The position numbers and the translations under genes were made by a program. Below the pieces are notes generated by a model. The model saw nothing but the letters and a program-made list of their open reading frames with translations. It did no database searches and was not told the origin of the DNA. Positions 1,925 through 47,145 of a stretch of DNA of 64,000 bases are shown piece after piece; within the stretch, counting starts at the first letter, position 1; every line of letters begins with the position of its first letter. The stretch is from assembly GCA_048939465.1 (NCBI GenBank), contig JBHLPL010000001.1, positions 23,562 through 87,561 of the forward strand, read 5' to 3'. The stretch comes from Promethearchaeota archaeon (GTDB lineage Archaea; Asgardarchaeota; Odinarchaeia; Odinarchaeales; JBHLKK01).

Positions 1925-3481
1925 CTAATAACTTAGCTCTGTGTGTCTTTGGAGATAGGGATGGGGATCCAAGCTAGACCAAGACAAGTCAATATCGCTA
2001 CGCTGAGACATCAACTCCTCAAGTAATCTCCCTGCTTTCTTTGTTTTCCACCAATAGTCACCGTAGTCATGCTCTAGCAATTGTTCGAGTTCAGCAACTC
2101 TTACTGACGCAATAACATAGCTTGGACTATAAAGGTTATAACTCGGCATAACATGATGTAATAGCCAATAGTCACCTGGCAGTCTGTGGAAGAACCTCGC
2201 AGTTAGTTCTTCATAACGCTCGGACGCTCCTTCTATGCTAAGATTATTCCGCCAATATTCAAGTTTCAAAATGCTGTTTGCTGCATAGAAGACCAGAAAC
2301 CAAAGATTCATGAAATGCCTTCTATTAATAATATCATTGGCTACTTCTTCATTGAATTTGAATACTTCGTTTAGAACGAGAGGATTTTCGACGATGTGTT
2401 CAAAGAGAATAGAAAATGTCTCATCAACTCCGATTGGCGTGAAATACCGGTTCCATATTGGTTTATCCGAACGTGCAGATACACCATGTATTGCATGTCC
2501 CATTTCGTGAAAAACGCTGCTTGTATCTTCAAAAGGATCACTTTGTCTAAAAAGAATACGAACATCATTTGGAATCTGAACGTAGAAGGTTACTGGACTT
2601 GGCGTTTTTCCTGGACGATCTGCATCGTCTACATTGACCCGAGATAGATCAAGACCCATTTCTTCAAAAACATCTTTAACAATTTCTATGGGATTTTTCA
2701 ATTTGGCAAAACGTCTTTTGAGGGGATGATAGACCCTACTCCTAAAAACATACATATCATCATAATAATCAAAGGGCTTTCCAAAGAGCTCCTCAGAGTA
2801 TCTCTCAGCACCTTTCATGAATGGTGATTTAGCTCGATCACCTAACATTTCAAGTAGTCTGTGAAGATCCTCGTATCGAACATCTTCCCACTCCAGATAT
2901 TTCTCAAGCGCGGTGGTATTGTACTTTGCATACGTTTGTCTGGAGATTTCAAAGAATTCCTCTATTAATGATTTGATTAAGGAAGCTTTCTGGATAAATT
3001 CATCAAAAACCGCCTTTCTTTTACTGGGCTCGGCTTCAGAATTGAATTGACGCCAATTTCCCCAGTTGACATTTTCTCCTCTGAATCTTTCCTTGCTGGA
3101 GATAACTCTATTGCGTTCTTCGTGTAATTTGTGTGTAACAGGAGTTTGCTCAGAGACAACAATGGACTCAACAAGTCCCTGCTTCAGCCTAAGATTTTCC
3201 GGTTGATGCCGTTGGAGGAACTCCCTTGATATTCGAATCATATCCTTGGCTGCTTTTTCCATCCTGTCCTTATTTACGTCCAAACCAGCGTATTGATTGT
3301 ACAACTCTTCGGCCTCTATGCTGTACAGCATTTCCCATTCTTTGTAGAATTTTGAAGGTTCCACGTTGATCCCCTCAATTGCCCTTCTGCTTTTTGAGAG
3401 ATAATCCTTACGATTATTTATGTTTTTCTTCCACAAGGAGACTCCATCCGCGGGGGTGGACGTGAATCGAGTTGTGTTCAA
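1925..3481 (-). CDS. pepF: M3 family oligoendopeptidase (PepF-like zinc metallopeptidase)
   Basis: 518 aa; zinc-binding HExxH motif HEMGHAIHG and overall M3B architecture. Confidence 0.7.
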   Translation of the reverse strand: MNTTRFTSTPADGVSLWKKNINNRKDYLSKSRRAIEGINVEPSKFYKEWEMLYSIEAEELYNQYAGLDVNKDRMEKAAKDMIRISREFLQRHQPENLRLKQGLVESIVVSEQTPVTHKLHEERNRVISSKERFRGENVNWGNWRQFNSEAEPSKRKAVFDEFIQKASLIKSLIEEFFEISRQTYAKYNTTALEKYLEWEDVRYEDLHRLLEMLGDRAKSPFMKGAERYSEELFGKPFDYYDDMYVFRSRVYHPLKRRFAKLKNPIEIVKDVFEEMGLDLSRVNVDDADRPGKTPSPVTFYVQIPNDVRILFRQSDPFEDTSSVFHEMGHAIHGVSARSDKPIWNRYFTPIGVDETFSILFEHIVENPLVLNEVFKFNEEVANDIINRRHFMNLWFLVFYAANSILKLEYWRNNLSIEGASERYEELTARFFHRLPGDYWLLHHVMPSYNLYSPSYVIASVRVAELEQLLEHDYGDYWWKTKKAGRLLEELMSQRSDIDLSWSSLDPHPYLQRHTELSY

Positions 3482-3742
3482 AACCCCTCTTGAGTGTTTA
3501 TGGCAAGGGTCTGTGACCCTGAAAGGAGAGTTGACATAGGTAACAGGCTCTTAGGCTATATGCTTAAAGAAGGGCTATCCCGCAGTCTGTGGCTGCTTGT
3601 GACGGGAATTTAACCGGCCCCAAACCTCCCCCAATGTTCGTTACTCTGAAAAGAGACTTGTTAGCGTTTCAAAGTCCGAGGGAGAAAACCCCTTGCGAAA
3701 GCTGGAGGTAGTTCACTCAGAGAAGAAGGATTTGTAAAACTT

Positions 3743-5008
3743 CTAGTAATTAGGCCTCGTTTCTTTTCTCAGATGTTTATTTGGTGGAACATCTTTCCAA
3801 ACCGTCAGATTGGGGTCAATTGTGCTGCTAGGACCGATCTTCAAACCAGGCATAATCATAACCCCTATCCCAGTTTTTACATCATCCCCCATAATCGCCC
3901 CCAGTTTACGACGTCCACTATCAACACGAATTCCCTTTAGAGTAACTGGGATGCTCCTTTCATCTAGACGAAGATTCGCAGTAATTGTACCTGCTCCAAA
4001 ATTGACGTTTTCTCCTATAATGCTATCTCCGGCATAAGAAAGATGTGCGATATGGCTCCCGTCCAGAATCACGCAATTCTTTATCTCACAGCCATTACCA
4101 ATTCGACATTCTTTTCCAATGTAGGTGTTTGGACGAATATAGCAATTAGGACCGATATCGGCCCCTTCATCTATTAGTGAAGGCCCTTCAATATAGGAGC
4201 CCGAACGGATAACAGCCCCTGTTTTCACCCCCACAGACCCAACTAGGACTGCTCCGGATTCAATCTTGCCTTCGACCTTCAATTCTTCTTTATTAAGAAG
4301 AATCTTGTTTGCCTCCAGTAGATCCCAAGGACGACCTATATCAATCCAAAAATCTGACAAAACGCAACCATAGACTGTTTTATTCTCCCTGATCATGATT
4401 TGAATGGAATCGGTTATTTCGTACTCATTCCTTCTTGATCGAGGAGTTTTCTTAATAGCATCGAAAATGTCCGTAGATAAAACCATAATGCCAGAACTTG
4501 CCAAGTTACCTGTCATTTCATCTGGCTTTGGCTTTTCGGCAATATCAGTTATTCTCTGTTCAGTGCCAAGTTTAACTACGCCATACAGTGAGGGATCCGA
4601 TACTTCTGCCAGTCCAATCGTGGCCTCGCATTCTTTCTTTTCGTGATGCTCAATAAGCCTCGGATAATTTCTTGAGTCAGTTAAAACATCACCGTTAGTA
4701 ACAATAAAGCTCTCCTGACCAACAAACTCTTCGGCCAGAGCTATAGCGTTTGCAGTACCCAGCACATCTCGTTGAACAGCATATTCAAGCTCTAACCCGA
4801 GATCATCACCGTCTCCGAATAACTCGATAATCTTCTCCTTGAAGTGCCCAACAATAAGCAAGGCCTTTCTTATCCCGGCTTGCTTAAATCCATTCAAGAT
4901 TATCTCCAAAAGCGGATGCCCCGCAACGGGAAGAATTTGCTTGGGACGTGTCAAAGTCAAAGGGTTAAGTCTTCTTCCTTCTCCAGCTGCGAGAACTACG
5001 CCTTTCAT
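3743..5008 (-). CDS. bifunctional sugar-1-phosphate nucleotidyltransferase/acetyltransferase (GlmU-like)
   Basis: N-terminal MKGVVLAAGEGRRLNPLTLTRPKQ nucleotidyltransferase signature; C-terminal left-handed beta-helix hexapeptide repeats (IGKECRIGNGCEIKNCVILDGSHIAHLSYAGDSIIGENVNFGAG). Confidence 0.7.
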   Translation of the reverse strand: MKGVVLAAGEGRRLNPLTLTRPKQILPVAGHPLLEIILNGFKQAGIRKALLIVGHFKEKIIELFGDGDDLGLELEYAVQRDVLGTANAIALAEEFVGQESFIVTNGDVLTDSRNYPRLIEHHEKKECEATIGLAEVSDPSLYGVVKLGTEQRITDIAEKPKPDEMTGNLASSGIMVLSTDIFDAIKKTPRSRRNEYEITDSIQIMIRENKTVYGCVLSDFWIDIGRPWDLLEANKILLNKEELKVEGKIESGAVLVGSVGVKTGAVIRSGSYIEGPSLIDEGADIGPNCYIRPNTYIGKECRIGNGCEIKNCVILDGSHIAHLSYAGDSIIGENVNFGAGTITANLRLDERSIPVTLKGIRVDSGRRKLGAIMGDDVKTGIGVMIMPGLKIGPSSTIDPNLTVWKDVPPNKHLRKETRPNY

Positions 5009-5089
5009 TTAATCACCAGATAAGAGGTAAGTCAATGAATTTAAATAAACAACGGTAGTTCTGGAATTATCCAACAAAAACTCAGGACT

Positions 5090-5755
5090 CTACCAAATCT
5101 CTTCGTCTTCTTTCTTATCATCGTATGTTTTGAAGTGCCTATCTCTGTCTGTTGTATCGAAGCTGGAACGATCCGCTGCGGTGTAGCGCCTGACACCTTC
5201 GGTTCTACGTTCAAGTTTCACGGCCTTTTCTATTGAATTGTGAACCATTTTTGTTGTCAGTGCATCAAATGCTTCTTCTACATGTTCCCCCGTCTTGGCA
5301 CTTGTTTCGATGTATTCACTTCCGATTTCGTTGGCAAACCATTCTGCATCTTCTTGTCTGACCTCTCTCAGGTGAGGCAGGTCCACCTTATTGCCAATTA
5401 AGACAACTGGAGCGTTGGGAGCTCCGTACTTGTATAGTTCCTCCAACCAACCCACTAGGTTTCTGAAGGTTACAATCCTCGTTAAATCAAAAACCAGCAA
5501 AGCTCCAGCGGTTCCTCCGTAGAATGCACTTCTAACCGCCTTAAACCTCTCTTGACCTGCTAGGTCCCATACAGACAGCTTTACCGTTCCTTCATCTGAA
5601 TTTACAGTCTTGGAGAATATGTCAACGCCTATGGTCATTTTGTAGTCTTTTTTGATAAATCCCTTGGTGAATTGAGAAATAAGGCTAGTCTTGCCGACAG
5701 CACCATCCCCCAGAAGCAATGTCTTGAATACGTAGATTGACTCTTTTTGGTTCAT
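5090..5755 (-). CDS. Rab-like Ras-superfamily small GTPase
   Basis: G1 GDGAVGKTSL; switch I Thr in YKMTIGVDIF; G3 WDLAGQERF; G4 GNKVDL; G5 ETSAKTG; charged C-terminal tail. Confidence 0.8.
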   Translation of the reverse strand: MNQKESIYVFKTLLLGDGAVGKTSLISQFTKGFIKKDYKMTIGVDIFSKTVNSDEGTVKLSVWDLAGQERFKAVRSAFYGGTAGALLVFDLTRIVTFRNLVGWLEELYKYGAPNAPVVLIGNKVDLPHLREVRQEDAEWFANEIGSEYIETSAKTGEHVEEAFDALTTKMVHNSIEKAVKLERRTEGVRRYTAADRSSFDTTDRDRHFKTYDDKKEDEEIW

Positions 5756-5830
5756 GTATCTTCACTCTCATGCCTACGACTACCCGCTTGTAGAGACCCT
5801 AAAGATATCTTATCTTTCATGTAAATAAAC

Positions 5831-6349
5831 TTAAGTCTTTTTCCTATATTCGAGCATCCTCCTAGTTATCGCCTTAAATGCTCCATTAACGTTCTTCCCT
5901 GTCTTGGCACTAGTTTCCGTGTATCCGTTACCAGTTGTCTTTGCATTCTGCCTCGCTTTTCGCGTAGATACCTTTCTCCGGTTTGTAAGATCTGTCTTGT
6001 TTCCTATGGTAACCACTGGCACTTTTCCTGCATACTCCTGCATTTCCTGCATCCATTCAGAAAGCGTCTCAAAAGTCGTTGGCCGAGTTACATCATAGAC
6101 AAGTAATGCTCCAGAGGCCCCCTCATAAAAGCCCTTTCTTATTATCTTAAAACGCTCTTGACCGGCAATGTCCCAGATTGTTAATTTGGTCTCGCAATCT
6201 CCTAGACGGATCTGTTTGGTGAAAAGATCCACACCTAGGGTCGGCTTATATTTGTGCCTAAAGCGATTTTCAACGTATTTCAGTGTCAACGTAGTTTTGC
6301 CAACAGAACCATCGCCGATTAGCAGCAGTTTTAAGTTGTACTTCTCCAT
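5831..6349 (-). CDS. Rab-like Ras-superfamily small GTPase (tandem paralog)
   Basis: G1 GDGSVGKTTL; YKPTLGVDLF; WDIAGQERF; GNKTDL; ETSAKTG. Confidence 0.8.
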   Translation of the reverse strand: MEKYNLKLLLIGDGSVGKTTLTLKYVENRFRHKYKPTLGVDLFTKQIRLGDCETKLTIWDIAGQERFKIIRKGFYEGASGALLVYDVTRPTTFETLSEWMQEMQEYAGKVPVVTIGNKTDLTNRRKVSTRKARQNAKTTGNGYTETSAKTGKNVNGAFKAITRRMLEYRKKT

Positions 6350-6478
6350 TTTTGAGGACCTCTCAATTTTTCCCTTCTTAAGTAATTCTTGGAAGCAGAT
6401 TACTTAAATATTTTGCAATTCTGACACTGATTATTTCCGATATGCTCAGAACCATTCCTAATGGCTTTTGTTTCATAA

Positions 6479-7204
6479 TTAAAGACTTCTGAGCTTCCTT
6501 ACAGCTTCTGTAACTGCTTTATCTGGCGTTGGGGCCCTCGAAGCATTATGTATCATTCTTTGATATGATTCAAACCGTTCTTCCGTAATACCGAATTTGC
6601 CGCAGATCTCGCTGACCAAGTCCCCTCGTTTTGTTGCTGAGCTTTTGTTTATAGCAAGCGTGATATCCAGAATTGTAGGAAGAAGCTTTGTTTCAGATTT
6701 GGGATCCCCAAAGCACGATTTCACGGCGTCATACAATTCTGGGCTGGTAACCGTTGCGGTGGTTAAAAAGGAGCTTCGCGTCTCTGTTAATGTCGGTATT
6801 ACCGTCAAAACCAGAGATTTGGAGGAATTACTTATTCTAATACCGCCACCTTCCTCCAATTTTCTAATAGTAATGTCGACTTTACTCTTAAGACAATCCA
6901 GGCTTTTTCTCACTACTTCATCCGAACTTATCTCATATTCCAGTCTTCTTTTCATTAGATTCACCCCAAGAGGCACTTTCGGCAACAGGTTCCTATTTGA
7001 TAGATACCTATTTAAGAGAATTCTCTTAACATAGCTAAAAACATACGGTGATATTAATGAAAAGAAGATTGGTTGTATTAGCGTTGATTGCGGCGTTATG
7101 TCTTTCGATGTACACCTTTGCATTCTCACAAGAAGGTTATGTAGATAATCAAAGACTCTTGGCGGCACCCGCGTTTGCACCAGAGATTTCAAGCTTTCCA
7201 TCAA
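6479..7204 (-). CDS. hypothetical protein (start uncertain; 5' end overlaps the PLD-like gene, internal Met near 6955 more plausible)
   Basis: longest ORF in the gap; no recognisable motif; the overlapping plus-strand ORF 6597..7034 looks compositionally like antisense noise. Confidence 0.3.
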   Translation of the reverse strand: MMESLKSLVQTRVPPRVFDYLHNLLVRMQRCTSKDITPQSTLIQPIFFSLISPYVFSYVKRILLNRYLSNRNLLPKVPLGVNLMKRRLEYEISSDEVVRKSLDCLKSKVDITIRKLEEGGGIRISNSSKSLVLTVIPTLTETRSSFLTTATVTSPELYDAVKSCFGDPKSETKLLPTILDITLAINKSSATKRGDLVSEICGKFGITEERFESYQRMIHNASRAPTPDKAVTEAVRKLRSL

Positions 7205-8397
7205 CTAAATTCACTGGAACAATGAATGTTACAGCTTACACATCGCCCGATTCAAGTTATGATCTGACCCTAGAATACCTACGGAGTGCCGAATTCGAGA
7301 TCGACATCGAGATTTATTCAATAAGTAACGGTTTCCTTGTAAAAGAACTAAATGATGCGCTGGCCAGAAACCATACTATGGAGATGAACGTCATAATCTC
7401 TGAGGGACACGCTTCGGGAGCCGAGACTCACTGGAGCCGAGCGACCATGTACAACCTGTCCCAAGCCAAAATAAGCATTCCAGCACCCAATCTCGATATT
7501 TTCGAATCAAATGGAACTGAATTCACCTTTACTCACGCCAAGTTCATAATCATAGATCGCGAAGTTGTTTTAGTTCAAAGCTGCAACTGGGCCAAGACCG
7601 GCGTTCCGCCTGATCCAAGCAGCGGCCATAGAGAATGGGGTGTTGCCATAAAGGACCAAGATGTAGTTGATTATTTCCTTGATGTGTTTACTAACGATAT
7701 GCTCATCGCAACACCGTATACACCTAACATAGCTCATCAAGACAATTTCGGTTCTTCAATTGATACTGGCCCGTATCCCCACCCATTCTCCTCTCAAACA
7801 TTCGTAGAATCCATGAGTATTCAGCCAGTTGTATCCCCTGATAATTCGAACGCCACTATCGGACAACTCCTAAGATCCGCTAATTCTACCCTGTACGTTC
7901 AACAAATGTATATCAAACGTTATTGGGACAGTGGAGATGACTACTTCCTTGAGGAATTAATAGCCGCAGCGGGAAGAGATGTAACTGTCAAGGTAATCAT
8001 AGATGGTGAAAGCAGTGGAATGACTGAAGTTGCCAACTATCTGATTGATAATGGCGTTGCAGTAGCTTTCGATAATGATACCTATTTCGATGAGCCGCTA
8101 TGGACCCACAATAAGGGCGTAATCGTGGATGGAAAAGTCGTTCTCGTCTCAAGTATCAATTGGTCCCATGAGTCAGTTAATGAAAACAGAGAGACTGGTG
8201 TATTAATATACAGTCAGAACATTGCTAGCTACTTCACTCAGGTCTTCCAATGGGACTGGGATGCTGCTGAATACCTCGGCGGTGGAAACGGCGGCGATGG
8301 TAACGGGTTGCAGATCCCAATTGAGTATTTGGCAATCGGTGGTGTAGTTGGAGTAATCATAATAGCAGTGCTGGCACTTCTTACCAAGAAGAAATGA
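7048..8397 (+). CDS. secreted, membrane-anchored phospholipase D-like protein with two HKD motifs
   Basis: N-terminal signal peptide (MKRRLVVLALIAALCLSMYTFAFS); HKD motifs FTHAKFIIIDREVVLVQSCNW and WTHNKGVIVDGKVVLVSSINW; many N-x-S/T sequons; C-terminal TM helix (IGGVVGVIIIAVLALL) plus KKK. Confidence 0.7.
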   Translation: MILMKRRLVVLALIAALCLSMYTFAFSQEGYVDNQRLLAAPAFAPEISSFPSTKFTGTMNVTAYTSPDSSYDLTLEYLRSAEFEIDIEIYSISNGFLVKELNDALARNHTMEMNVIISEGHASGAETHWSRATMYNLSQAKISIPAPNLDIFESNGTEFTFTHAKFIIIDREVVLVQSCNWAKTGVPPDPSSGHREWGVAIKDQDVVDYFLDVFTNDMLIATPYTPNIAHQDNFGSSIDTGPYPHPFSSQTFVESMSIQPVVSPDNSNATIGQLLRSANSTLYVQQMYIKRYWDSGDDYFLEELIAAAGRDVTVKVIIDGESSGMTEVANYLIDNGVAVAFDNDTYFDEPLWTHNKGVIVDGKVVLVSSINWSHESVNENRETGVLIYSQNIASYFTQVFQWDWDAAEYLGGGNGGDGNGLQIPIEYLAIGGVVGVIIIAVLALLTKKK

Positions 8398-8580
8398 AGA
8401 ACTCACTATAAGACCTTTCACCTTTTTCTATTCTCAACACTCCTGGATAAATCCATCACAATAAGGGGGGCCTTTTGCCGATAGAGTTAAAAGAATCTGC
8501 TCATCTGTCTTGTTGGGTAATTCACAGGCGTTTCAAATGACATATCTTTTTGGAGATATTGCTGTGTAGCGTGATTTCAG

Positions 8581-10164
8581 ATGAGAAAGATTATTGAAAT
8601 CAACGCCCTCAAGAAAGATTTTAAAAAGGTAGACTTACGTTTCGCTCTAGTCTATCCGAATCACTATCGTGCAGGGATGAGTAGCCTTGCTGTCCACCTT
8701 ATTTATGAATTGATAAACGATCGAGAAGACAGTTTGTGTGAACGTATTTTCATGTCTACTCGTCCGCTATCTGTTGAATCAAGACAACCATTGTCAAGGT
8801 TTGATGTCGTGGGTTTTTCTCTTCAATATGAGACTGACTATCTAAATGTCCTAAAGATTTTGAAAGCTTCTGACATACCGTTACGCTCAGCCGATCGAAC
8901 AAGAAGTAACCCTCTGGTAATCGCGGGAGGTCCTTGCGTATCTGAGAATCCAGAACCAATTGCTCATTTCGTTGATGTATTTGTGGTTGGAGAGCTTGAG
9001 CCGATTTTCAATGACCTAATGACAACACTTGTTCAAACTGAGCCTAAATCGAATTTGGAGGAACTTGCAGAAATCAAAGGAATATATGTTCCTTCTCTAA
9101 ATCCAGAATGTGTTGAACGAGTCTGGGCAAAGGACTTGGATTCAACCTACCATTCGATACGACAAATAATCCCTCAGGTTGAAAAAGATGATGAGTATTC
9201 CCCTGCGTTTGGCAAAGCTCTATTGGTGGAAGCATCGAGGGGATGCTGCCATCGGTGTCGTTTCTGTCTGATAGGCTACCAGTGCAACCCCTACCGGGAA
9301 CGCAACTTGAGTCAACTGGCGGCGATTATTGAAGACGGTATCAGAAGCACTGGCGTGAGAAAAATCGCATTAATAGGTCCTGCAATATCGGACTATACTC
9401 GGCTTGAAGATTTATGTTGGCAGATAGTAAACTCTGGATTGGAGCTATCAATTCCGTCTCTAAGGGCAGATCATGTCACCGAAAATATGATACAAGCCCT
9501 TGTTAACGGCGGCCAGAAAACAATTGCCCTTGCTCCTGAGGTAGCTTCTACTGCTCTTGCGGAAAGCATCAATAAGGGAATTACTAAAGATCATGTGCTC
9601 GATTCAGCTCAAACAGCACTAGCCAGCGGAATCAAGAATCTGAAACTCTACTTCATTATTGGCCTCCCGTCAGAAACCGACGACGATGCTCTCCAGATAG
9701 CGTATCTTTCAAAGGAAGTCGCAGATTTAGGATTCACCAAACATTCTGTACGACTTAGCGTAAATCCATTCATACCGAAGCCCCACACCCCCTTCCAATG
9801 GTTTGCGCAGCCACCATTGGATATCCTCAGAAAGAGACTAAGAATCGTCAAGACTCAACTCAAGCATGATTCGAGAATTGAGGTTGAAAACCTTGATCTT
9901 AAATGGGGGAGAATACAGACTGCCCTCTCACTTGGTGACCGCCGGCTCGGAAACGTTCTAGAATCTGCAGCCATGCTCAACGGCGGACTGGGTGATTGGA
10001 GACGCGCCTTTAGACTACATGGCCTGAGAATAGAAGATTACGTCAATAAGCCCAGATCAGTCGATGACAGACTACCATGGAATTTCATCAAAGTTGCGGA
10101 CTCTAATCTTCTTTTAAGGGAATATCGAAAGGCGCTCAATTATGTGGCCCGGTCTCCGAAATGA
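8581..10164 (+). CDS. B12-binding-domain radical SAM protein
   Basis: 527 aa; N-terminal B12-binding-like domain; radical SAM CxxxCxxC in ASRGCCHRCRFCLIGYQ. Confidence 0.7.
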   Translation: MRKIIEINALKKDFKKVDLRFALVYPNHYRAGMSSLAVHLIYELINDREDSLCERIFMSTRPLSVESRQPLSRFDVVGFSLQYETDYLNVLKILKASDIPLRSADRTRSNPLVIAGGPCVSENPEPIAHFVDVFVVGELEPIFNDLMTTLVQTEPKSNLEELAEIKGIYVPSLNPECVERVWAKDLDSTYHSIRQIIPQVEKDDEYSPAFGKALLVEASRGCCHRCRFCLIGYQCNPYRERNLSQLAAIIEDGIRSTGVRKIALIGPAISDYTRLEDLCWQIVNSGLELSIPSLRADHVTENMIQALVNGGQKTIALAPEVASTALAESINKGITKDHVLDSAQTALASGIKNLKLYFIIGLPSETDDDALQIAYLSKEVADLGFTKHSVRLSVNPFIPKPHTPFQWFAQPPLDILRKRLRIVKTQLKHDSRIEVENLDLKWGRIQTALSLGDRRLGNVLESAAMLNGGLGDWRRAFRLHGLRIEDYVNKPRSVDDRLPWNFIKVADSNLLLREYRKALNYVARSPK

Positions 10165-10253
10165 GAATTCTATCGTTGTCTGTTTTTCTATTTGGTCAGT
10201 GATTCCGATGCCTTTATTTATGGCCGTTTCGGTTAGTGACATAGGAAACCGAG

Positions 10254-10616
10254 GTGGGTGAGCGCATGGCTCTCAATCGGAGGGACATGAAAAAACACTT
10301 CCCTAAACTTGCGGAAGAGATCGAAAGCAGCAAGACCAGAAAGGTCGAAGTAGGAGGAGTCCGTTGGTCAGAAACAGATTACTATGAGGAACTTACTAAT
10401 CCTGATGTTATTAGCTTTTTGAGACGTTGTGATACCGAGAAACAAGGACAAGAGATAATAGACTACCTGGAGAATAGGGAAGAGATCACCCCCGAGTATG
10501 CTGACATCCTTCGACATCAATTGCAGACAAGAGGCGTTCGTTCCTTTGGCCCAAAAAAAACATGGGGCTACTTCGAGAAGGTGTACAGAAAGAAAGCAAA
10601 GCCTAAGAAGAAGTAG
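10254..10616 (+). CDS. hypothetical protein with Lys-rich C-terminus
   Basis: 120 aa ORF; basic tail KKAKPKKK; no recognised motif. Confidence 0.35.
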   Translation: MGERMALNRRDMKKHFPKLAEEIESSKTRKVEVGGVRWSETDYYEELTNPDVISFLRRCDTEKQGQEIIDYLENREEITPEYADILRHQLQTRGVRSFGPKKTWGYFEKVYRKKAKPKKK

Positions 10617-11616: not shown

Positions 11617-12585
11617 ATGCAGGATGGGAGGAAATCTGGAATGAAGTACTCTATTATAGTTCACGGCGGCGCCGGTACCGTTACACCGGAGAGATCGGAA
11701 GAAGCAAAAAAAGGCGTGCTTGCGGCCCTCCAGAAAGCATCCTCATTACTTGCAGAGGGTAGAGACGCTGTGACCGCAGTAGAAGAATCAGTAAAGATGA
11801 TGGAAGACAATCCAAACTTCAATGCCGGGAAAGGATCCACACTAACGATTGACGGCAGGGTTCAAATGGGAGCCTGTATAATGGATGGAAAAACGTTGGA
11901 TGTGGGTGCTGTCGCGCTGGTTTCAAATGTACGTTATCCTATCTCATTGGCCCGGATCGTCATGAGAGAAACCGATCACGTATTGATCACAGGCGACTTT
12001 GCTGAGCATTTAGCCAAGAAATTCGAGTTGGAAACTAGCGATCCTTTGACAAATAAGAGTGTAGAACGATGGAAACAACTACGCGAGAAGTTTATGAAAG
12101 GGGAACTCAGCTATCTGAAAAAGAATCCGAAGTTGATGAAGATGTTCCCGCGTCTGGTACAGCTTGGGACAGTGGGGGCGGTTGCGATAGATAACGATGG
12201 TAATCTGGCTGCAGCCACATCAACTGGCGGTATTCCCCTAAAATTACCCAATCGGATAGGGGACACCCCCCAAGTTGGGTGCGGAACTTACGCTGACAAC
12301 GCATCAGGAGCGGTTTCAGCCACAGGTGTGGGAGAAGTTATAGCCCGAGTATGTTTGGCAAAAACCGTATGCACCTTCATTGAAACTGGCGAATCCGCCC
12401 AAATGGCAGCCGGCAAGGCCATAGGGGTATTGACTTCGAGGCTAGGAGGGGAGACTGCAGGATGCATAGTCGTGGACAAGGACGGGCGCACCGGTATTTA
12501 TCATAATACCAAGAATCTTGTCTGGGCAAGATTGACACATAAAATGAAAAAGCCAGAAGTTGGGACTGAATATTCATCGGTGTGA
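11617..12585 (+). CDS. isoaspartyl peptidase / L-asparaginase (Ntn-hydrolase, plant-type asparaginase family)
   Basis: N-terminal IIVHGGAGT; autoproteolysis/nucleophile region GTVGAVAIDNDGNLAAATSTGG. Confidence 0.8.
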   Translation: MQDGRKSGMKYSIIVHGGAGTVTPERSEEAKKGVLAALQKASSLLAEGRDAVTAVEESVKMMEDNPNFNAGKGSTLTIDGRVQMGACIMDGKTLDVGAVALVSNVRYPISLARIVMRETDHVLITGDFAEHLAKKFELETSDPLTNKSVERWKQLREKFMKGELSYLKKNPKLMKMFPRLVQLGTVGAVAIDNDGNLAAATSTGGIPLKLPNRIGDTPQVGCGTYADNASGAVSATGVGEVIARVCLAKTVCTFIETGESAQMAAGKAIGVLTSRLGGETAGCIVVDKDGRTGIYHNTKNLVWARLTHKMKKPEVGTEYSSV

Positions 12586-14392
12586 GGGAGAATCTGTGCC
12601 ACGGATAGCAGTAATAAACATAGACAAATGCAAGCCCAAAGACTGCGGGAAACCATGTATGACCTTCTGCCCCGGAGTAAGGATGGGAGAGGAAACAGTG
12701 ACCTTCCCCGACCCTGCGAAACATCCAATAATATCCGAGAGTCTATGCACCGGATGTGGAATCTGTATAAAGAAATGTCCTTACGGCGCTATAAAAATAG
12801 TTAATACTCCAGAGCAATTGGAAGGCGAGGCCAGCCATAGGTACGGAGCTAATGCGTTTGTCTTATACAGACTGCCTGTTCCGAAAATCGGAAAGGTGAC
12901 CGGAATAGTAGGTCAAAATGGTGCGGGAAAGACTACTACCCTAAGAATACTGGCGGGAGAGATAAAACCGAATCTAGGGCACTATGATGATCCCCCCTCT
13001 TGGAATGAAATCGTCACTTTCTACAGGGGATCTGAACTCCAGCTCTATTTCGAAAGAATTGCAAATAATGAAATCAGAGTAAGCTATAAACCTCAGTATA
13101 TAACCGACCTGCCTCAAGTTACAAAAGGCGTAGTTGGTGACCTTCTGGAAAAAACCGACCAGCGAGAAGTTATGGAGGATCTGAAAAGACAGTTAGACTT
13201 GGAGAGCGTATGGGATCATGAGCTTCCAAAACTGTCTGGTGGTGAATTACAGCGGGTGGCGATAGCGGCAGCCTCCGCTAAGGATGCTGATGCATACCTA
13301 TTTGATGAACCAACAAGCTACCTTGATATATTCCAGAGAACCAAGATTGCCAAAGTCATACGCGCGCTTGCAGGAGAAAACAAGACTGTAATAGTAGTGG
13401 AGCACGATCTGGCTATTAACGACTATGTTAGTGACTACACTAGCGTAATCTTCGGAGAACCTGGTGTCTATGGCATAGTCTCCCATCCTTATGGAGTGCG
13501 AGAGGGGATAAATGCTTTCCTTAATGGATACCTAGTGGATGAAAACATTCGCTTCAGAGATCGGAGTATCACATTTCCTTTACATCCACCAACACCGAAA
13601 ACTGCACTTATAGAGACACCGTTAGTATTAGAATTTGGAGCCATGAAAAAGAAGCTGAATGGCTTTAAGCTTGCAATTGGCGGGGGAGTAATTCATCAAG
13701 GAGAAATCATCGGTGTTTTGGGACCAAACGGAATAGGAAAAACAACATTTGTAAAAATCCTTGCTGGGCTTCTCGAAATTGACAAAGGCGAACCTCCCAA
13801 AGTGGAACTAACTGTTTCCTACAAACCTCAGTATATAAGCGCAGAATATGACGGTACTGTTAGAGAGTATCTAAATGAAGCTTCGGGGAGAAAGATCTCC
13901 ACGAGTATCTACAAAACCGAGATAATCGGCCCACTTGGACTGAAAGAACTGCTTGATAGGCGAGTAGACAGTCTTAGCGGCGGAGAACTTCAAGCGGTTA
14001 CCATAGCTGGCTCACTGTCTAGAAAAACTGATCTCCTGCTCATAGACGAACCAAGCGCTTTTCTAGATGTGGAGCAAAGACTTGCTTCTGCAAAGACAAT
14101 AAAGCGAACAGTTGAGAGATATAAAAACGCCGCATTTGTTGTTGAGCATGACGTGGTTTACATCGATACCGTGGCTGATCACCTGATGGTTTTCGAGGGT
14201 GTGCCAAGCCTAGCAGGTCAAGTTGGTCCGCCGGTTAATATGCGTAGCGGCATGAACAAGTTTCTAAAGACAGTTGGCATTACCCTAAGAAGAGATGCGC
14301 GTACGGGGAGACCAAGGGTTAACAAGTCAGGTTCACGCCTCGACCAGGAGCAGAAGGCATCTGGAGAGTATTACTACGCACCGGCGAAGTAG
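12560..14392 (+). CDS. abcE1: ABCE1 / RNase L inhibitor (ribosome-recycling ABC ATPase)
   Basis: N-terminal Fe-S domain (CKPKDCGKPCMTFCP, CTGCGICIKKCP); two ABC domains (Walker A GQNGAGKTT and GPNGIGKTT, signature LSGGELQ twice); 5' end overlaps preceding gene by ~26 nt. Confidence 0.9.
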   Translation: MGLNIHRCEGESVPRIAVINIDKCKPKDCGKPCMTFCPGVRMGEETVTFPDPAKHPIISESLCTGCGICIKKCPYGAIKIVNTPEQLEGEASHRYGANAFVLYRLPVPKIGKVTGIVGQNGAGKTTTLRILAGEIKPNLGHYDDPPSWNEIVTFYRGSELQLYFERIANNEIRVSYKPQYITDLPQVTKGVVGDLLEKTDQREVMEDLKRQLDLESVWDHELPKLSGGELQRVAIAAASAKDADAYLFDEPTSYLDIFQRTKIAKVIRALAGENKTVIVVEHDLAINDYVSDYTSVIFGEPGVYGIVSHPYGVREGINAFLNGYLVDENIRFRDRSITFPLHPPTPKTALIETPLVLEFGAMKKKLNGFKLAIGGGVIHQGEIIGVLGPNGIGKTTFVKILAGLLEIDKGEPPKVELTVSYKPQYISAEYDGTVREYLNEASGRKISTSIYKTEIIGPLGLKELLDRRVDSLSGGELQAVTIAGSLSRKTDLLLIDEPSAFLDVEQRLASAKTIKRTVERYKNAAFVVEHDVVYIDTVADHLMVFEGVPSLAGQVGPPVNMRSGMNKFLKTVGITLRRDARTGRPRVNKSGSRLDQEQKASGEYYYAPAK

Positions 14393-36078: not shown

Positions 36079-36864
36079 ATGAAGTGTCCCCGATGCGATT
36101 ATGAGATTTCAGCAGATCAATTAACATGCCCGCAATGTGGTTTTAGAATGACGATTGAAAAACTTGAACGCGTAATTCCCTTGCTTAGACGCCCCGTTAG
36201 AACAACTGTAGAACCGTTATCTACCCTGCAGAGACTGAAAGGGACGTTCATTTCTCCAGCTTTGACCTTCTGGAACATTTCCAAAATCCCTGACAAAAAG
36301 GGATTCTTGTTCATTTTATTCTTCAATGCACTCCTTATTTCTCTCAATTACCCCATCTTATGGACGCACATAAATGTAATAGGATCTGAAACCTTCGTCG
36401 GAATTGTAAGTCTCCACATATGGGGGAGCTTTATTGGCTTGTTTCTATCTGGCCTTGGCATATTATTGCTCGCGTGGATTCTGATCGTTTTTGCATTCTG
36501 GACAATCTCCAGAGTGACTGGAGGAAAAGGATCATATCGAGCAACCTTTCTGGTCACAAGCTATGCCTTTGCCCCTCTTATAATCGCAAGGTTAATTTCT
36601 CTGGTTGTCTTGGCAGGTGGACTCCCAAGCGTTACCATTACCGAAGCCATGGCTCCTGGAGAATTGGGCACAGCACTGATACCTTTACTCAATTCTGTAG
36701 TCTGGACTTATTCCCTTGGTGTTGAGACTTTCTTTTGGCTTTGGTCTGCACTGCTTTCTTCATTGGCAATAAGAGAAACTCAGAATACGTCAACTCTCAA
36801 AGCGGTAGTAATGGCTTACGCTGTTATCATATGCTCTCTACTAATACTTTGGACAATTCATTGA
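36079..36864 (+). CDS. zinc-ribbon-containing polytopic membrane protein (possibly Yip1-like)
   Basis: N-terminal CPRCDYEISADQLTCPQCGF zinc ribbon followed by ~5 TM helices; family assignment tentative. Confidence 0.35.
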   Translation: MKCPRCDYEISADQLTCPQCGFRMTIEKLERVIPLLRRPVRTTVEPLSTLQRLKGTFISPALTFWNISKIPDKKGFLFILFFNALLISLNYPILWTHINVIGSETFVGIVSLHIWGSFIGLFLSGLGILLLAWILIVFAFWTISRVTGGKGSYRATFLVTSYAFAPLIIARLISLVVLAGGLPSVTITEAMAPGELGTALIPLLNSVVWTYSLGVETFFWLWSALLSSLAIRETQNTSTLKAVVMAYAVIICSLLILWTIH

Positions 36865-36931: not shown

Positions 36932-37954
36932 TCATCGGATCATCACTATGAGTTTGATGGGACTGGCCAGATTCTTATCATTAACAAAAATGAGATCTCC
37001 TTCTTTCACTCCGGTATCTTTCAATACGATGCTATCCGGGACAATCTTGCCCTCGATAATAATCTCAGGATTCTGAAGGCCATAGGTCATTATCAGCCTG
37101 TTTTTTAATTCTTGAATGGGTTCTTCCAGGTTCACGACATATTTGACGCCTACGGTGCGGTACTTAGGACTGCAAACAACACAGCTCGGATTACGGACAA
37201 GCCTAATCTTTGTAAAAGACTGGCTCAATCCATCGTAAAATAGATAGTTGTCAAGCAGATCCTTGCGTTCTAAAATAATCTTTAGCGTTTCTTGTGCTTG
37301 GATTCCTCCGACTACTGTAGTTGTTGTGGAAATCATTGGAAATTTCTCCTTCTCTTGCTCTTTCTCTTTTCGCGCCTCTCCAGGAAGAGTACAGGCCTTC
37401 TGTAATCTTTCTTTTGGTATCAATGGTTGGCATTCCAGGCAGGGCGTTTCAAAGGGGATGATTACCTGAACGTTCCCCCACCAGCCAAATAATCCTCCAT
37501 GAATTAGAGGCTTATTCAAGTGAACACACATGGAATTCAGCCATCTGCGTGCCTCAAAAGTATCTAAGCCTTCCACGATGACCGAACTTCTCTGGTAGAC
37601 TTCTTTATCTATCGACCGCATATCCTTCATATAGGTACTTACCTTGACTTCCGGATTGAGTTTCTCAAGGAATTCCTCAGCAGCCTCCACTTTCAATCTT
37701 CCAATATCTTCTTCTCTGAAAAGTATTTGTCGGTTCAAATTCGAAAGCTCAATTGTGTCGTTGTCTATAAGAATCAACTTTCCTATTCCCATCAACGCCA
37801 GATCAAGAGCAACTACCGAGCCTAAAGCCCCCACTCCTACGACCAAAACCGTTGAATTGCGAATCAATCCTTGGTCCCATTCTTCGAGAAGTTCCTGTCT
37901 ATGATAACGACCTTCTCCTTCTTTCAAGCCTGCCCCCTCCTGAGGTGTTTCCAA
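36932..37954 (-). CDS. ubiquitin-activating E1-like enzyme (ThiF/MoeB/UBA family) with C-terminal beta-grasp-like extension
   Basis: Rossmann nucleotide motif VLVVGVGALGSVVALDLALMGIGKLILIDNDTIELSNLNRQ; catalytic region; two CxxC zinc pairs (TPCLECQ, PSCVVCSP); ~90-aa C-terminal extra domain. Confidence 0.8.
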   Translation of the reverse strand: METPQEGAGLKEGEGRYHRQELLEEWDQGLIRNSTVLVVGVGALGSVVALDLALMGIGKLILIDNDTIELSNLNRQILFREEDIGRLKVEAAEEFLEKLNPEVKVSTYMKDMRSIDKEVYQRSSVIVEGLDTFEARRWLNSMCVHLNKPLIHGGLFGWWGNVQVIIPFETPCLECQPLIPKERLQKACTLPGEARKEKEQEKEKFPMISTTTTVVGGIQAQETLKIILERKDLLDNYLFYDGLSQSFTKIRLVRNPSCVVCSPKYRTVGVKYVVNLEEPIQELKNRLIMTYGLQNPEIIIEGKIVPDSIVLKDTGVKEGDLIFVNDKNLASPIKLIVMIR

Positions 37955-38364
37955 GTAGCATACCTTTTGATATACTCTTTTACTTTCTCCTTGAATTCTC
38001 TTGGCGACTCACGCATTTCCTTTGCAGCCACTCGATTCAGAGGGTCGTGAGGGTTGGGAAAGCTCAGGACGTTTCTTATGGCCTCGATTACGCCAACTAA
38101 ATTTATGCTTGGAGACCAATCTTTCCCCAGAATGCCCAGACATATTCTTCCCTCCCTGGTGATATTTGGATGCCAAATTGGAGTCAAGAACCGAGCTTTG
38201 GGAGGTTTAAATGGATAGCTTCTGTCTACTTCTAACTCGATTTGGAAGACCCCTCCATCGTAAACACTGGTACCTAGAATGAATCCACGCCATTTTGTGA
38301 GGTCTCCACTTAGCGGTTGAAATGAAGGTTCCTCCTCCTCTATGCTCTTAGCTTCAAGTGCCAA
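37924..38364 (-). CDS. ubiquitin-conjugating enzyme E2 (UBC fold, catalytic Cys present)
   Basis: FKPPKARFLTPIWHPNITREGRICLGILGKDWSPSINL: canonical HPN motif and active-site Cys; overlaps E1 by 31 nt. Confidence 0.8.
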   Translation of the reverse strand: MALEAKSIEEEEPSFQPLSGDLTKWRGFILGTSVYDGGVFQIELEVDRSYPFKPPKARFLTPIWHPNITREGRICLGILGKDWSPSINLVGVIEAIRNVLSFPNPHDPLNRVAAKEMRESPREFKEKVKEYIKRYATWKHLRRGQA

Positions 38365-38540
38365 GCGCTCTAAGAATGCCTCTCTGTCTAAAATCTTTCC
38401 ATACCTCCCTCTGAATATGTAAAATCACAAAGAAATAAGTATGTGAAAAATATTAAAACCTTATAGTTCAGGATCGATCCTCCTGAATGATACGGCCTTC
38501 TATCCTCCAGATGAAAGATCCTAAGCGAAATAGAAAGTAT

Positions 38541-38783
38541 TTAAGGATCTCCTCCTTCGGTTCTAGTAATAAGATACACCTTATCTCTTTCGACGCACCC
38601 TGCTTCTTTAAGTGTCGTACTATCCAGCTGTTCCATACCTTTGAATGCAAGGACAAAGGTTGCTTCTGGTATACGTCTCTGTCTGGCAATTATTCTCTTG
38701 AGTTCACCGAATGAAATATTAGGCGCCACATCAAGTGTGGTCTTCATTCCACCAATTGCAGAGACAATCTCTACCTCCATCAT
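38541..38783 (-). CDS. ubiquitin-like beta-grasp protein with C-terminal GG-DP (pro-ubiquitin)
   Basis: alignable to ubiquitin over its length (MEVEIVSAIGGMKTTLDVAPNISFGELKRIIARQRRIPEATFVLAFKGMEQLDSTTLKEAG..LITRTEGG) and ends ..TEGGDP. Confidence 0.65.
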   Translation of the reverse strand: MMEVEIVSAIGGMKTTLDVAPNISFGELKRIIARQRRIPEATFVLAFKGMEQLDSTTLKEAGCVERDKVYLITRTEGGDP

Positions 38784-38798
38784 AAATCACCCCAATTA

Positions 38799-39038
38799 CT
38801 ATTTTACCATAAGATGTCTAGTGGAGAGTTTTCTTTTGCAGAAGGGACATTGGCCCTTCGTCTTAACCCATTCCAGCAGTTCAATCTTGTGAGCTTGGCT
38901 TCCGCAGTATGGACAGTATATTGTCTTCTCGCCGGGTCTTATTGGCAGAAGGCAAACGATGCACCTTTCTGGCTCCCAAAGCCACTCTCCTAAGACTCTA
39001 ACTTGCTTTATTACGAATCTGTCAGCTGCCTTCGACAT
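38799..39038 (-). CDS. Cys-rich RING-like zinc-finger protein (candidate E3)
   Basis: CIVCLLPIRPGEKTIYCPYCGSQAHKIELLEWVKTKGQCPFCK: CxxC-x12-CxxC-x4-H-x15-CxxC; paralogous to N-terminus of the next gene. Confidence 0.5.
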   Translation of the reverse strand: MSKAADRFVIKQVRVLGEWLWEPERCIVCLLPIRPGEKTIYCPYCGSQAHKIELLEWVKTKGQCPFCKRKLSTRHLMVK

Positions 39039-39181
39039 TTAGTATCTCCAAAGAAGATTAATTAAGAACACTATTAAATACTTTTGCGAATGCCCCCACT
39101 CGGGGCAGTTCAGACTCTTTGCTCTGAATTGATCATCTCCTACAGCCTTGGAATTGCAGATTAGTCGAAAAACCAACAGAG

Positions 39182-39913
39182 CTAACCCCCCAAAACCTCT
39201 TCAAACATATCAAGCAAAACATAGCGAGTTGAGGGATCAATGGCAACAGTTCCATAAGTTGGCACACCCAATAGTCTTCCCACAAGTTCTGGGTCCAATG
39301 AGTGGGGAAGGTCTTGTTTGTTTGCAATTGCAACAACCTTTGCATCAGGAACACGTTCTTGGACGAGGCTCATGATTCTCTTCCTGGTCCTGGCTACACT
39401 CGTTACAGACGAGTCCGTAACAACGATGATAATATCTGAGCCCCTGATCATTACGTCCCAGAATCGACCAAATCGTTCTTGTCCAGCGAAATCCCACACG
39501 ATCACTTTTACTGGCGTTTCCACCCCTTCGAGATTTTTGATATTGACCATTAGGGTAGGAGTATGGTTTATGGGAACTTCTTCATCAAAAAGCAATTTCA
39601 GCAGTGTTGTCTTGCCTGCACCGCCAAATCCCAAAAAGGAGACCTTAATGATCCTCATTAGCTGGCTTACGGAAAGTCTCATCTTACAGAAGGGACATTT
39701 ACCTTTGGTCTTAACCCATTCAAGTATTTCTCTTCTGTGAGCAATACATCCACAGTTTGGGCAGTCTATTGTCTTATCGTTAGGTCCTATTGGCAGAAGG
39801 CATACTATGCAATTCTTCGCTCCCACTTTTTCCACCCAGTCTTCCGATCTGTGGATATTGCAGAGCGTCAAATCGATTAGGAAATCCTGTCTCTCTTCAC
39901 TGGGCCACCTCAA
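39182..39913 (-). CDS. RING-like zinc finger fused to small GTPase
   Basis: N-terminal CIVCLLPIGPNDKTIDCPNCGCIAHRREILEWVKTKGKCPFCK; GTPase G1 GFGGAGKTTL, G3 WDFAGQERF, G4 ANKQDL. Confidence 0.7.
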   Translation of the reverse strand: MRWPSEERQDFLIDLTLCNIHRSEDWVEKVGAKNCIVCLLPIGPNDKTIDCPNCGCIAHRREILEWVKTKGKCPFCKMRLSVSQLMRIIKVSFLGFGGAGKTTLLKLLFDEEVPINHTPTLMVNIKNLEGVETPVKVIVWDFAGQERFGRFWDVMIRGSDIIIVVTDSSVTSVARTRKRIMSLVQERVPDAKVVAIANKQDLPHSLDPELVGRLLGVPTYGTVAIDPSTRYVLLDMFEEVLGG

Positions 39914-40074
39914 ATCTTACAAGATTTTGTAGCCTAACTACATAATTGACACTTGTAGTATAAAAGATTTGTGATGCGCTATTAATTCACAGCAAAGAAG
40001 TGTGTAAAACACGGTAACCCGCGGTTTCTTTGTTTAGAGTGAGTTGAAGGTACGATTAAATCTCCTTTGAGTAA

Positions 40075-40623: not shown

Positions 40624-40633
40624 GCCTCTCTTA

Positions 40634-44282: not shown

Positions 44283-44324
44283 ATGGTTTCCCCCATTGGC
44301 AGATTCAGATGTTTTCAGAAGGAA

Positions 44325-44939: not shown

Positions 44940-45100
44940 CTATTACACCTCATTAGTCACTGAAAGGTTGTACAACACACACAATTAAAGCTTACGAAAT
45001 TACATCAAATACGGCTTTTCATCACCTAAGTTTTTTAGGTTTGTTCTTCTAATAGTTAACTAGCCTATCGCAATGTCTACAGAATCCTATTTTCCTGAGG

Positions 45101-46264: not shown

Positions 46265-46278
46265 ACTGGTGATATATA

Positions 46279-47025: not shown

Positions 47026-47145
47026 CCTGTCTTTCGCGGTTATGCACCATCTAAGCGGATTATCTTGCGAAAATCTTAAATCTTTTTATGTGAATATTAT
47101 AACAGATCACGCGTAACTCCGATTCATGGATTAGATTAAGATGAA

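Follow-up and report, generated by a model that had tools for sequence, protein, structure and literature searches.

The 64-kb stretch of contig JBHLPL010000001.1 analysed here (the window), from a Promethearchaeota archaeon, carries two adjacent genes for Rab-like small GTPases, which we call RabB and RabA. A first-pass annotation had placed a tandem co-directional pair at this site, giving no strand, and both open reading frames (ORFs) were recovered at the limits it gave; they lie on the minus strand, RabB being transcribed first and RabA following after 75 bp (table 1). The complete G1–G5 motifs, Rab/Ras-type switch II and NKxD/SAK elements that had been proposed could all be located in both proteins, and Pfam Ras (PF00071; cut-off 21.6 bits) matched over its whole model at 170.7 bits for RabA (E = 2.4e-50) and 184.4 bits for RabB (E = 1.5e-54). 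Roc, Arf and other Pfam GTPase families scored far below Ras for either protein, and NCBIfam returned only the generic small_GTP domain (92.5 bits for RabA, 102.3 bits for RabB); the NCBI annotation of orthologues already reads 'Rab family GTPase'. A sequence search of the PDB revealed that the best 60 matches for each protein were all Rab/Ypt proteins or the Thorarchaeota Rab 7EZB, with Rab11A on top for RabA (E = 5e-43) and 7EZB for RabB (E = 1e-40). We built an AlphaFold2 (AF2) model of RabA from a 64-sequence alignment (mean predicted local distance difference test score, pLDDT, 80), in which the G domain had pLDDT mostly above 90 and whose best 50 Foldseek matches were all Rab/Ypt. Residues W63, D64, G67 and Q68 of RabA were unvarying across 64 Asgard homologues. 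Comparison with a close relative indicated purifying selection on both genes, with ratios of non-synonymous to synonymous substitution (dN/dS) of 0.046 for RabA (0.019 in the G domain, 0.14 in the tail) and 0.10 for RabB, values that are only approximate because synonymous sites are saturated (dS > 1). RabA and RabB are intact Ras-superfamily GTPases, far beyond chance.

We placed the pair in a neighbour-joining (NJ) distance tree (172 columns, 200 bootstraps). Among the references, HRAS, RHOA, RAN, ARF1, RAB7A and Myxococcus MglA were checked as full-length, near-maximal-score matches to named PDB entries, and RAB11A, RAB21 and Thor-Rab were taken from PDB search alignments; RAB1A, RAB5A, RAC1 and RAP1A entered the tree as unverified sequences. 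The tree separated the Asgard Rab-like proteins, together with eukaryotic Rab, Ras, Rho and Ran, from Arf1, MglA and the remaining two GTPase domains of the window at 93% bootstrap. In this placement, which the first-pass annotation had suggested as a check, the pair fell on the Rab/Ras/Rho/Ran side and outside MglA/Era-like clades. Over the G domain, RabA was 42% identical to Rab11A, 34% to HRas, 34% to Ran, 21% to MglA and 21% to Arf1, and RabB was 42% identical to Rab7A and 24% to MglA; the two together spanned 33–34% with HRas, 30–34% with Ran, 21–24% with MglA and 18–21% with Arf1. Both also carry RabF-like motifs (IGVDIF, KLSVW, RFKAVR, FYGGT and LVFDLT in RabA; LGVDLF, KLTIW, RFKIIR, FYEGA and LVYDVT in RabB) that are related, not identical, to the eukaryotic set, in which RabF1–RabF5 were reportedly given by Pereira-Leal and Seabra in 2000 as IGVDF, KLQIW, RFRSIT, YYRGA and LVYDIT. 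A sister relation to eukaryotic Rabs received 20% bootstrap in the NJ tree, and deep nodes collapsed in a larger tree. Vargova et al. (10.1101/2024.02.28.582541) place Asgard 'RasL' proteins within the Rab/Ras/Rho/Ran clade, none of them specifically sister to Rabs. The earlier name 'Rab-like' is best read as a description of similarity (42% to Rab11A/Rab7A) and not as a claim of a specific Rab sister; Asgard RasL, or Rab-like GTPase, is the accurate label, 'Rab' denoting similarity and not orthology.

Membership of Arf or Rag/Gtr did not fit either. RabA scored 42.7 bits against Pfam Arf versus 170.7 bits against Ras, its AF2 model has no N-terminal helix, and the G3 sequences of the pair, WDLAGQE and WDIAGQE, are not the Arf WDVGGQ interswitch signature. 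Neither protein has the extra domain of Rag/Gtr, as RabB stops ~20 residues past SAK and the RabA tail is predicted to be disordered; matches to Pfam Gtr1_RagA (cut-off 22 bits) were weak, at 26.5 bits for RabA and 18.3 bits for RabB. The pair had been presented as eukaryote-like GTPases of the Asgard type, rare elsewhere in prokaryotes. The Asgard part is borne out: the closest homologues all come from Asgard metagenome-assembled genomes (MAGs), and genes of the ESCRT and ubiquitin systems are present in the window. The rarity holds roughly, with exceptions in bacterial Rup group 1 (PMC4316618) and in Rab-like GTPases 45–47% identical to RabA on two Chloroflexota MAG contigs (L013 and L014; Anaerolineaceae or Chloroflexia bins). 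A 176-aa protein labelled 'Candidatus Deferrimicrobium' (P0036) is 55% identical to RabA. These three may be relatives of bacterial Rup group 1, transfers or mis-binned Asgard contigs.

The two proteins end differently. RabA has the long charged tail that had been described for the 221-aa protein, with 12 K+R and 13 D+E among its 51 residues. The absence of a CaaX or CC signal was also confirmed: RabA contains no Cys at all, the tails of 13 RabA orthologues contain none, and RabB has a single internal Cys (C52) and none near its C-terminus. Neither protein can therefore be prenylated, as both lack a C-terminal CC, CxC or CaaX cysteine. In the AF2 model, helix alpha5 runs to about residue 189, and residues 189–219 have pLDDT below 50, that is, predicted disorder. 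An amphipathic helix, the alternative membrane anchor that we looked for in the RabA tail with a hydrophobic-moment calculation, was not convincing (aa 168–184: moment 0.55–0.66, negative mean hydrophobicity, highly charged). Two short motifs recur in the tail. RRYT at aa 189–192 ([KR]YYT in Odinarchaeia) lies ~20 residues past the G domain, with Y191 and T192 invariant in 14/14 aligned RabA-orthogroup sequences, and an acidic-Trp terminus is present in nine of the 14 (EEIW in RabA, REPW.F[DE] or KEEWVF in Odinarchaeia). The terminal motif bears some resemblance to HbYX, CAP-Gly EEY/F, AIM/LIR and DPW types, none of which fits well.

When the 120 database sequences nearest to RabA were compared, the 13 members of its orthogroup had 58–82 residues past SAK, as against 18–33 in more than 100 other Asgard Rab-like proteins. 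An exhaustive HMMER scan of 1.84 billion cluster representatives found the orthogroup as one representative, an Odinarchaeia protein, and no other protein there aligned with the distal tail. By these searches the RabA tail is confined to this lineage and Odinarchaeia. Since only a single, narrow orthogroup has it and that group sits within tail-less proteins, the extension is most simply read as a late, lineage-specific gain and not as the ancestor of the eukaryotic hypervariable domain. RabB ends in ...YRKKT, and a polybasic [YF]RKKT or [ST]RKK end is common to its relatives and Odinarchaeia orthologues.

The host lineage was read from the ABCE1/RLI gene (table 1), whose product matches an NCBI protein of a 'Promethearchaeota archaeon' MAG at 100% identity. 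It is 86–87% identical within its own lineage and has its best outside match in Odinarchaeia (64%, 892 bits), above Freyr-, Jord-, Baldr- and other Asgard groups and Bathyarchaeia (55–63%). The organism therefore belongs to an Odin-related Asgard lineage, Odinarchaeia being the named group closest to it. Its close relatives bear two labels from NCBI submitters, 'Promethearchaeota archaeon' and 'Candidatus Hodarchaeota archaeon', the latter carried by L006 (JBHLKK010000095.1) and P0094. The Hodarchaeota label may be wrong, as ABCE1, GlmU, the radical-SAM (rSAM) protein, DUF2095 and the RabA orthogroup all indicate Odinarchaeia.

RabA and RabB are 45–47% identical to each other, and RabA is closer to 174–182-aa proteins of Hel- and Lokiarchaeia (52–58%) than to RabB. 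In the NJ tree RabA grouped with the long-tail proteins of Odinarchaeia at 100% bootstrap, and RabB grouped with Odinarchaeia 171-aa proteins at 76%. RabA orthologues are 87–92% identical in close relatives and 63–70% in Odinarchaeia; the G domain is 70–73% identical to Odinarchaeia, at least as conserved as ABCE1 (64%). RabB is 50–51% identical to its Odinarchaeia counterparts, 51% in the case of the 171-aa gene at the equivalent position in Odinarchaeum LCB_4. The co-directional order RabB, RabA, GlmU was kept in 8/8 loci where it was visible (L001–L003, L005 and, from Odinarchaeia, L004 and L007–L009), including the closed Odinarchaeum yellowstonii LCB_4 genome and three other Odinarchaeia assemblies. 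Among GTDB species representatives, the RabA orthogroup was restricted to three species of Odinarchaeia plus two that are related to the window organism, the next match being at 48%. Taken together, the trees and gene order argue that RabB and RabA are distinct, anciently paired paralogues, adjacent since before the split from Odinarchaeia.

A different co-directional tandem pair of Rab-like genes, ~190–205 aa each and ~170 bp apart, is conserved across several species and was seen in L030, L038, L041, L044, L047, L051 and L053 (Heimdallarchaeia and unclassified Asgard contigs). Each member of the Heimdallarchaeia-type pair, represented by five loci in the tree, formed its own clade, unrelated to RabA or RabB. 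Neighbouring Rab-like pairs of Heimdallarchaeia and Thorarchaeota were thus ruled out as RabB–RabA orthologues by their separate clades.

We read promoter- and terminator-like footprints from intergenic alignments of the window with its relatives. The ATTGCAAAATATTTAAGTAAT box in front of RabB is a near-identity block in diverged intergenic DNA (window, L001 and L005), and a near-identical aaatatttgagtaat lies ~45 nt 5' of the RabB start codon in Odinarchaeum LCB_4; the box presumably acts as a promoter. The TTTATTTACATGAAA box, invariant in the window, L001 and L005, is possibly an internal TATA-like promoter for RabA or else part of a read-through spacer. In Odinarchaeia the RabB–RabA spacer is only 16 nt and holds an AGGTGA ribosome-binding site, so co-transcription of the pair is likely there. 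Behind RabA, a T5–T7 tract is kept in the window, L001 and L006 and would act as a terminator. GlmU probably has its own promoter, judging by the conserved TATTTAAA box in front of it.

Table 1. Features of the 64-kb window (positions counted from its first letter).
Feature	Position	Strand	Details
RabB	5831..6349	-	Core-only Rab-like (Asgard RasL) GTPase, 172 aa, ATG start, pI 10
RabA	5755..5090	-	Rab-like (Asgard RasL) GTPase with C-terminal extension, 221 aa, ATG start
RabA P-loop, G1	5687..5710	-	GDGAVGKT, aa 16-23
RabA switch I			YKMTIGVDIF, aa 38-47
RabA switch II, G3	5549..5569	-	WDLAGQE, aa 63-69; catalytic Gln68
RabA G4	5381..5392	-	NKVD, aa 122-125; guanine specificity
RabA G5	5294..5302	-	SAK, aa 152-154
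RabA C-terminal extension	5093..5245	-	aa 171-221, 51 residues
RabB P-loop, G1	6293..6316	-	GDGSVGKT, aa 12-19
RabB switch I			YKPTLGVDLF, aa 34-43
RabB switch II, G3	6155..6175	-	WDIAGQE, aa 59-65
RabB G4			NKTD, aa 117-120
RabB G5			SAK, aa 147-149
Box ATTGCAAAATATTTAAGTAAT	6399..6419	-	TATA-like, promoter-like; ~55-60 nt 5' of RabB start codon
Box TTTATTTACATGAAA	5815..5829	-	Conserved; directly past RabB stop codon, in 75-nt spacer
Oligo-T tract	5075..5081	-	GTTTTTG, 9 nt past RabA stop codon; archaeal terminator-like
Box TATTTAAA	5034..5057		Conserved, TATA-like, before GlmU; plus GGTGAT ribosome-binding site
GlmU-type enzyme	3743..5008	-	Bifunctional sugar-1-phosphate nucleotidylyltransferase/acetyltransferase; always next after RabA
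158-aa protein	6479..6955	-	Fold unrecognised; restricted to this lineage and Odinarchaeia
PLD-like protein	7048..8397	+	Two PLDc_2 domains
ABCE1/RLI	12560..14392		
Yip1-domain membrane protein	36079..36864	+	57 bits
Ubiquitin E1 (ThiF)	36932..37954	-	
Ubiquitin E2 (UQ_con)	37924..38364	-	
RING-GTPase fusion	39182..39913	-	243 aa; N-terminal RING, Arf/Rag-like GTPase domain
HerA-like ATPase	41676..44282	-	
ESCRT-III Snf7	44325..44939	-	
Vps4	45101..46264	+	With MIT domain
ESCRT-II Vps25-like	46279..47025	+	
1318-aa ORF	47146..51102	+	Beside ESCRT genes
ESCRT-I Vps28	51923..52729	-	
VTT/DedA-type membrane protein	55807..56649	-	Near longin-GTPase fusion
UbiA-family prenyltransferase	56720..57685	+	Upstream of longin-GTPase fusion
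Longin-GTPase fusion	57903..58760	+	285 aa; Fuz_longin_1 (Mon1/HPS1 type), Arf/Rag-like GTPase
ESCRT-II Vps36/EAP30-like	59839..61644	+	601 aa

The GlmU-type enzyme matched NCBIfam TIGR03992 (Arch_glmU) at 483.7 bits against a cut-off of 292 and is 55% identical to the gene after RabA in Odinarchaeia. On the other side of the pair, the 158-aa gene always stands head-to-head with the PLD-like gene; we found no evidence that this neighbour is a GTPase regulator. The PLD-like protein, judged by eye, has an apparent N-terminal signal sequence and a C-terminal membrane anchor, and is followed by a B12-type rSAM protein (TIGR03960-like, below cut-off) and DUF2095, the block spanning 6479..10616 with its Odinarchaeia counterpart at L004 12188..16003. 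The seven genes (DUF2095, rSAM, PLD-like, the 158-aa gene, RabB, RabA and GlmU) are clustered both here and in Odinarchaeia, where one block has been relocated to the other side of GlmU; the flanks differ. Between GlmU and an M3-family peptidase gene (3400..3742) lie ~290 bp of window-specific DNA, the spacer of the relative L001 being 89 bp; for this stretch neither a repeat, in the window or in the loci, nor an Rfam match was found, and it showed no sign of folding (z -1.35, -0.34). The M3-family peptidase ORF probably starts near 3361 and not at the listed TTG at 3481.

Farther along, eukaryotic signature genes are packed into 36932..61644, the known Asgard ubiquitin–ESCRT cluster; with the RING–GTPase and longin–GTPase fusions and the Yip1-domain protein, they make up the eukaryotic signature set typical of Asgard archaea. 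Within it, the RING–GTPase fusion lies ~820 bp from the E2/E1 genes and could be a GTPase-gated E3 ligase; its zf-RING_2 match (25.5 bits) is slightly under the Pfam cut-off of 27.3. The window holds four Ras-superfamily GTPases. The UbiA-family gene was considered as a protein prenyltransferase and rejected, as it belongs to the wrong family (lipid/aromatic prenyltransferases) and a Cys to modify is lacking in any case. The sole Pfam match of the 1318-aa ORF was a weak, borderline one to CarboxypepD_reg (32.7 bits, cut-off 32.3). The Yip1-domain gene is ~30 kb from RabB/RabA; the domain is common across prokaryotes, and eukaryotic Yip1-family members bind Rabs.

Both proteins retain all Mg-GTP switch residues (P-loop Lys/Thr, switch I Thr, the catalytic Gln of DxxGQ, NKxD and SAK), from which we infer that they act as GDP/GTP conformational switches. 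The switch I Arg is missing from both, its place being taken by Met in RabA and by Pro in RabB, so that hydrolysis and nucleotide exchange probably need separate GAPs (GTPase-activating proteins) and GEFs (guanine nucleotide exchange factors). These are not encoded beside the pair, in keeping with Tran et al. (PMC10933270), who note that roadblock, longin or TRAPPC3 genes do not, in general, share operons with Asgard GTPase genes. A scan of some 40 larger ORFs from the window gave no match to REP/GDI, RabGGTase, TBC GAPs or DENN/Vps9/TRAPP GEFs. Targeting would rely on protein contacts or weak electrostatics, not on a lipid anchor. The polybasic end of RabB could confer a weak electrostatic affinity for anionic membranes or partners, while the [KR]YYT and terminal acidic-Trp motifs of RabA most likely serve as short linear motifs for docking, linking the G domain to a partner protein, much as eukaryotic Rab-like proteins that are not prenylated, IFT27 and RABL2 among them, are held in protein complexes. 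The conserved adjacency, the promoter box before RabB and the 16-nt Odinarchaeia spacer suggest that the two are probably co-expressed in one pathway, in which they might form a two-switch module or cascade. We consider it likely that RabB and RabA are anciently paired, unprenylated RasL switches, dependent on GAPs and GEFs, with RabA docked by its tail and both probably co-expressed in one pathway.

Some observations weigh against this reading. In the larger tree, RabB and the Odinarchaeia 171-aa proteins are adjacent basal branches that form no clade, which leaves gene position and the common RKK(T) end as the main grounds for calling RabB an orthologue. The gene order shared with Odinarchaeia could be plain inherited synteny and not selection for linkage. 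Given TTTATTTACATGAAA between them, RabB and RabA may be transcribed separately in the window lineage. The terminal Trp motif is absent in 4/10 Odinarchaeia orthologues (LCB_4 type) and replaced by Phe in one more, so it cannot be essential to the family, and the saturated synonymous sites blur the estimates of selection. We infer switch behaviour, GAP dependence, tail docking and co-transcription alike from sequence.

Other explanations of the pair fared worse. The genes are adjacent, co-directional and of one family, and tandem Rab-like pairs are common in Asgard archaea, with one conserved in at least five Heimdallarchaeia loci, all of which would suit a recent lineage-specific tandem duplication that left redundant copies, one of many in the Asgard GTPase expansion. 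However, the low identity between RabA and RabB, the greater nearness of RabA to Hel and Loki proteins and the separate syntenic Odinarchaeia orthologue of each gene effectively refute a recent duplicate; with the unequal rates of the two genes (70–73% versus 50–51% identity to Odinarchaeia) and their different conserved C-termini also against it, we regard this origin as highly improbable. An identity as ordinary prokaryotic GTPases of the MglA, Rup or Era type, acting in polarity or with the ribosome and not eukaryote-like, is practically negligible. The weak, sub-threshold NCBIfam matches to Era, Obg and LepA that could be cited for it are what any P-loop GTPase gives, whereas the 93% bootstrap split and an identity to MglA about half of that to Rabs refute it. 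The standard DxxGQ G3 and NKxD are present, the residue before the switch I Thr is no Arg finger (Met in RabA, Pro in RabB), the top PDB and fold matches are all Rabs, and no roadblock/MglB gene lies beside RabB/RabA, the neighbouring 158-aa protein not having a roadblock fold. It is also very unlikely that RabA is the true orthologue of a specific eukaryotic Rab such as Rab11, with a tail homologous to the hypervariable domain. Its best PDB matches (Rab11A/B, Rab25, Rab2, Rab4 and Rab14), the identity to Rab11A, the RabF-like motifs and a tail about as long as the Rab hypervariable region would agree with that, but the low bootstrap for a Rab sister relation, the collapse of deep nodes, the RasL placement by Vargova et al. 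and the tail itself, which has no cysteines and is limited to a single narrow group within tail-less Asgard proteins, do not.

The neighbours raise the question of whether the switches form a functional unit with GlmU, the PLD-like protein, rSAM and DUF2095, regulating the synthesis or export of envelope or glycan precursors, or lipid remodelling. The seven genes stay clustered in both lineages despite internal rearrangement and differing flanks, and GlmU always follows RabA in the same direction at gaps of 41–83 bp. Inherited synteny is nevertheless enough to explain the cluster because the window lineage and Odinarchaeia are related, and GlmU is a housekeeping enzyme. An operon with GlmU is further weakened by the conserved oligo-T after RabA and the TATA-like box of GlmU itself in the window lineage, and by ~20 Heimdallarchaeia loci in which GlmU, rSAM and DUF2095 stay together with no GTPase next to them; the closest Rab-like gene there is ~5 kb off, past endonuclease V, TrmB-like and HhH-GPD glycosylase genes. 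We consider such a unit unlikely. A further possibility, somewhat less remote and still doubtful, is that the RabA tail is an archaeal targeting tether comparable to the Rab hypervariable domain, its [KR]YYT and acidic-Trp motifs docking RabA on a specific membrane-bound or cytoskeletal partner, and that RabB–RabA is an ancient module or cascade of two GTPases, which even the streamlined Odinarchaeum genome of 1.4 Mb has kept. If that were true, tail-mediated Rab-like targeting would predate or parallel eukaryogenesis, contrary to the published suggestion of a proto-eukaryote origin of the extension. Two anciently paired RasL switches remain our preferred account.

Asgard Ras/Rab-like GTPases are central to the debate on the origin of eukaryotic membrane trafficking, and the pair can be set beside several known systems. 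IFT27/RABL4, RABL2 and RABL5/IFT22 have Rab-like G domains without a lipid anchor and work via protein contacts in complexes. Their likeness to RabA and RabB is a functional analogy, with no evidence of orthology, and we know of no IFT-type partners in archaea. MglA and Rup proteins share with the pair the format of a prokaryotic single-domain Ras-superfamily switch, and Wuichet and Sogaard-Andersen 2014 (PMC4316618) place bacterial Rup group 1 close to Rab/Ran/Ras/Rho; the pair differs in its distance from MglA and in having neither an intrinsic Arg finger nor an adjacent MglB/roadblock GAP. Rag/Gtr proteins, including the Rag-like operon pair of the Asgard archaeon MK-D1 (PMC10933270), are likewise encoded by two adjacent paralogous genes whose products may act together. 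Rag, however, dimerizes through a C-terminal roadblock domain, whereas RabB carries no additional domain and disorder is predicted for the tail of RabA.

Eukaryotic Rabs (Rab11, Rab7, Rab1 and others) resemble the pair in fold, G motifs, RabF1–F5-like motifs and G-domain identity (37–42%), and RabA adds a flexible tail of hypervariable-domain length past helix alpha5. They differ in that RabA and RabB have no CC, CxC or CaaX and hence no geranylgeranylation; Tran et al. (PMC10933270) found no REP, GDI or RabGGTase in Asgard archaea. The closest comparison is with Asgard RasL proteins, a group that goes back to Klinger et al. 2016 and was taken up by Vargova et al. (10.1101/2024.02.28.582541), and with Thor-Rab, whose structure (PDB 7EZB) Tran et al. 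2024 (PMC10933270) reported together with a survey of cultured MK-D1. In their work Thor-Rab, which has no tail, showed no targeting to membranes. Common to all are a single G domain, G1–G5, RabF-like motifs, the lack of C-terminal cysteines and an Asgard host. Thor-Rab differs from both RabA and RabB in having a switch I Arg37, discussed in PMC10933270 as the residue that lets MglA, and possibly Thor-Rab, self-stabilize hydrolysis.

Asgard Rab-like GTPases are already well described, with a structure, and the pair adds nothing new in kind. What we did not find described are two things: the tail without cysteines that the RabA orthogroup conserves, and the RabB–RabA pairing shared with Odinarchaeia; the rest is already known. 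With its strongly conserved G domain and a short conserved tail motif usable as partner bait, RabA is a tractable case, and RabB is a fixed neighbour that could be tested as a second switch of one module; orthologues of the two are found in the closed genome of Odinarchaeum yellowstonii LCB_4. According to Tran et al. (PMC10933270), Asgard Rabs 'lack the C-terminal extension', an element whose origin those authors speculatively date to eukaryogenesis. RabB, with its typical truncated C-terminus, fits that description, and RabA, by its conserved extension of hypervariable-domain length without prenylation cysteines, is a mild exception to it.

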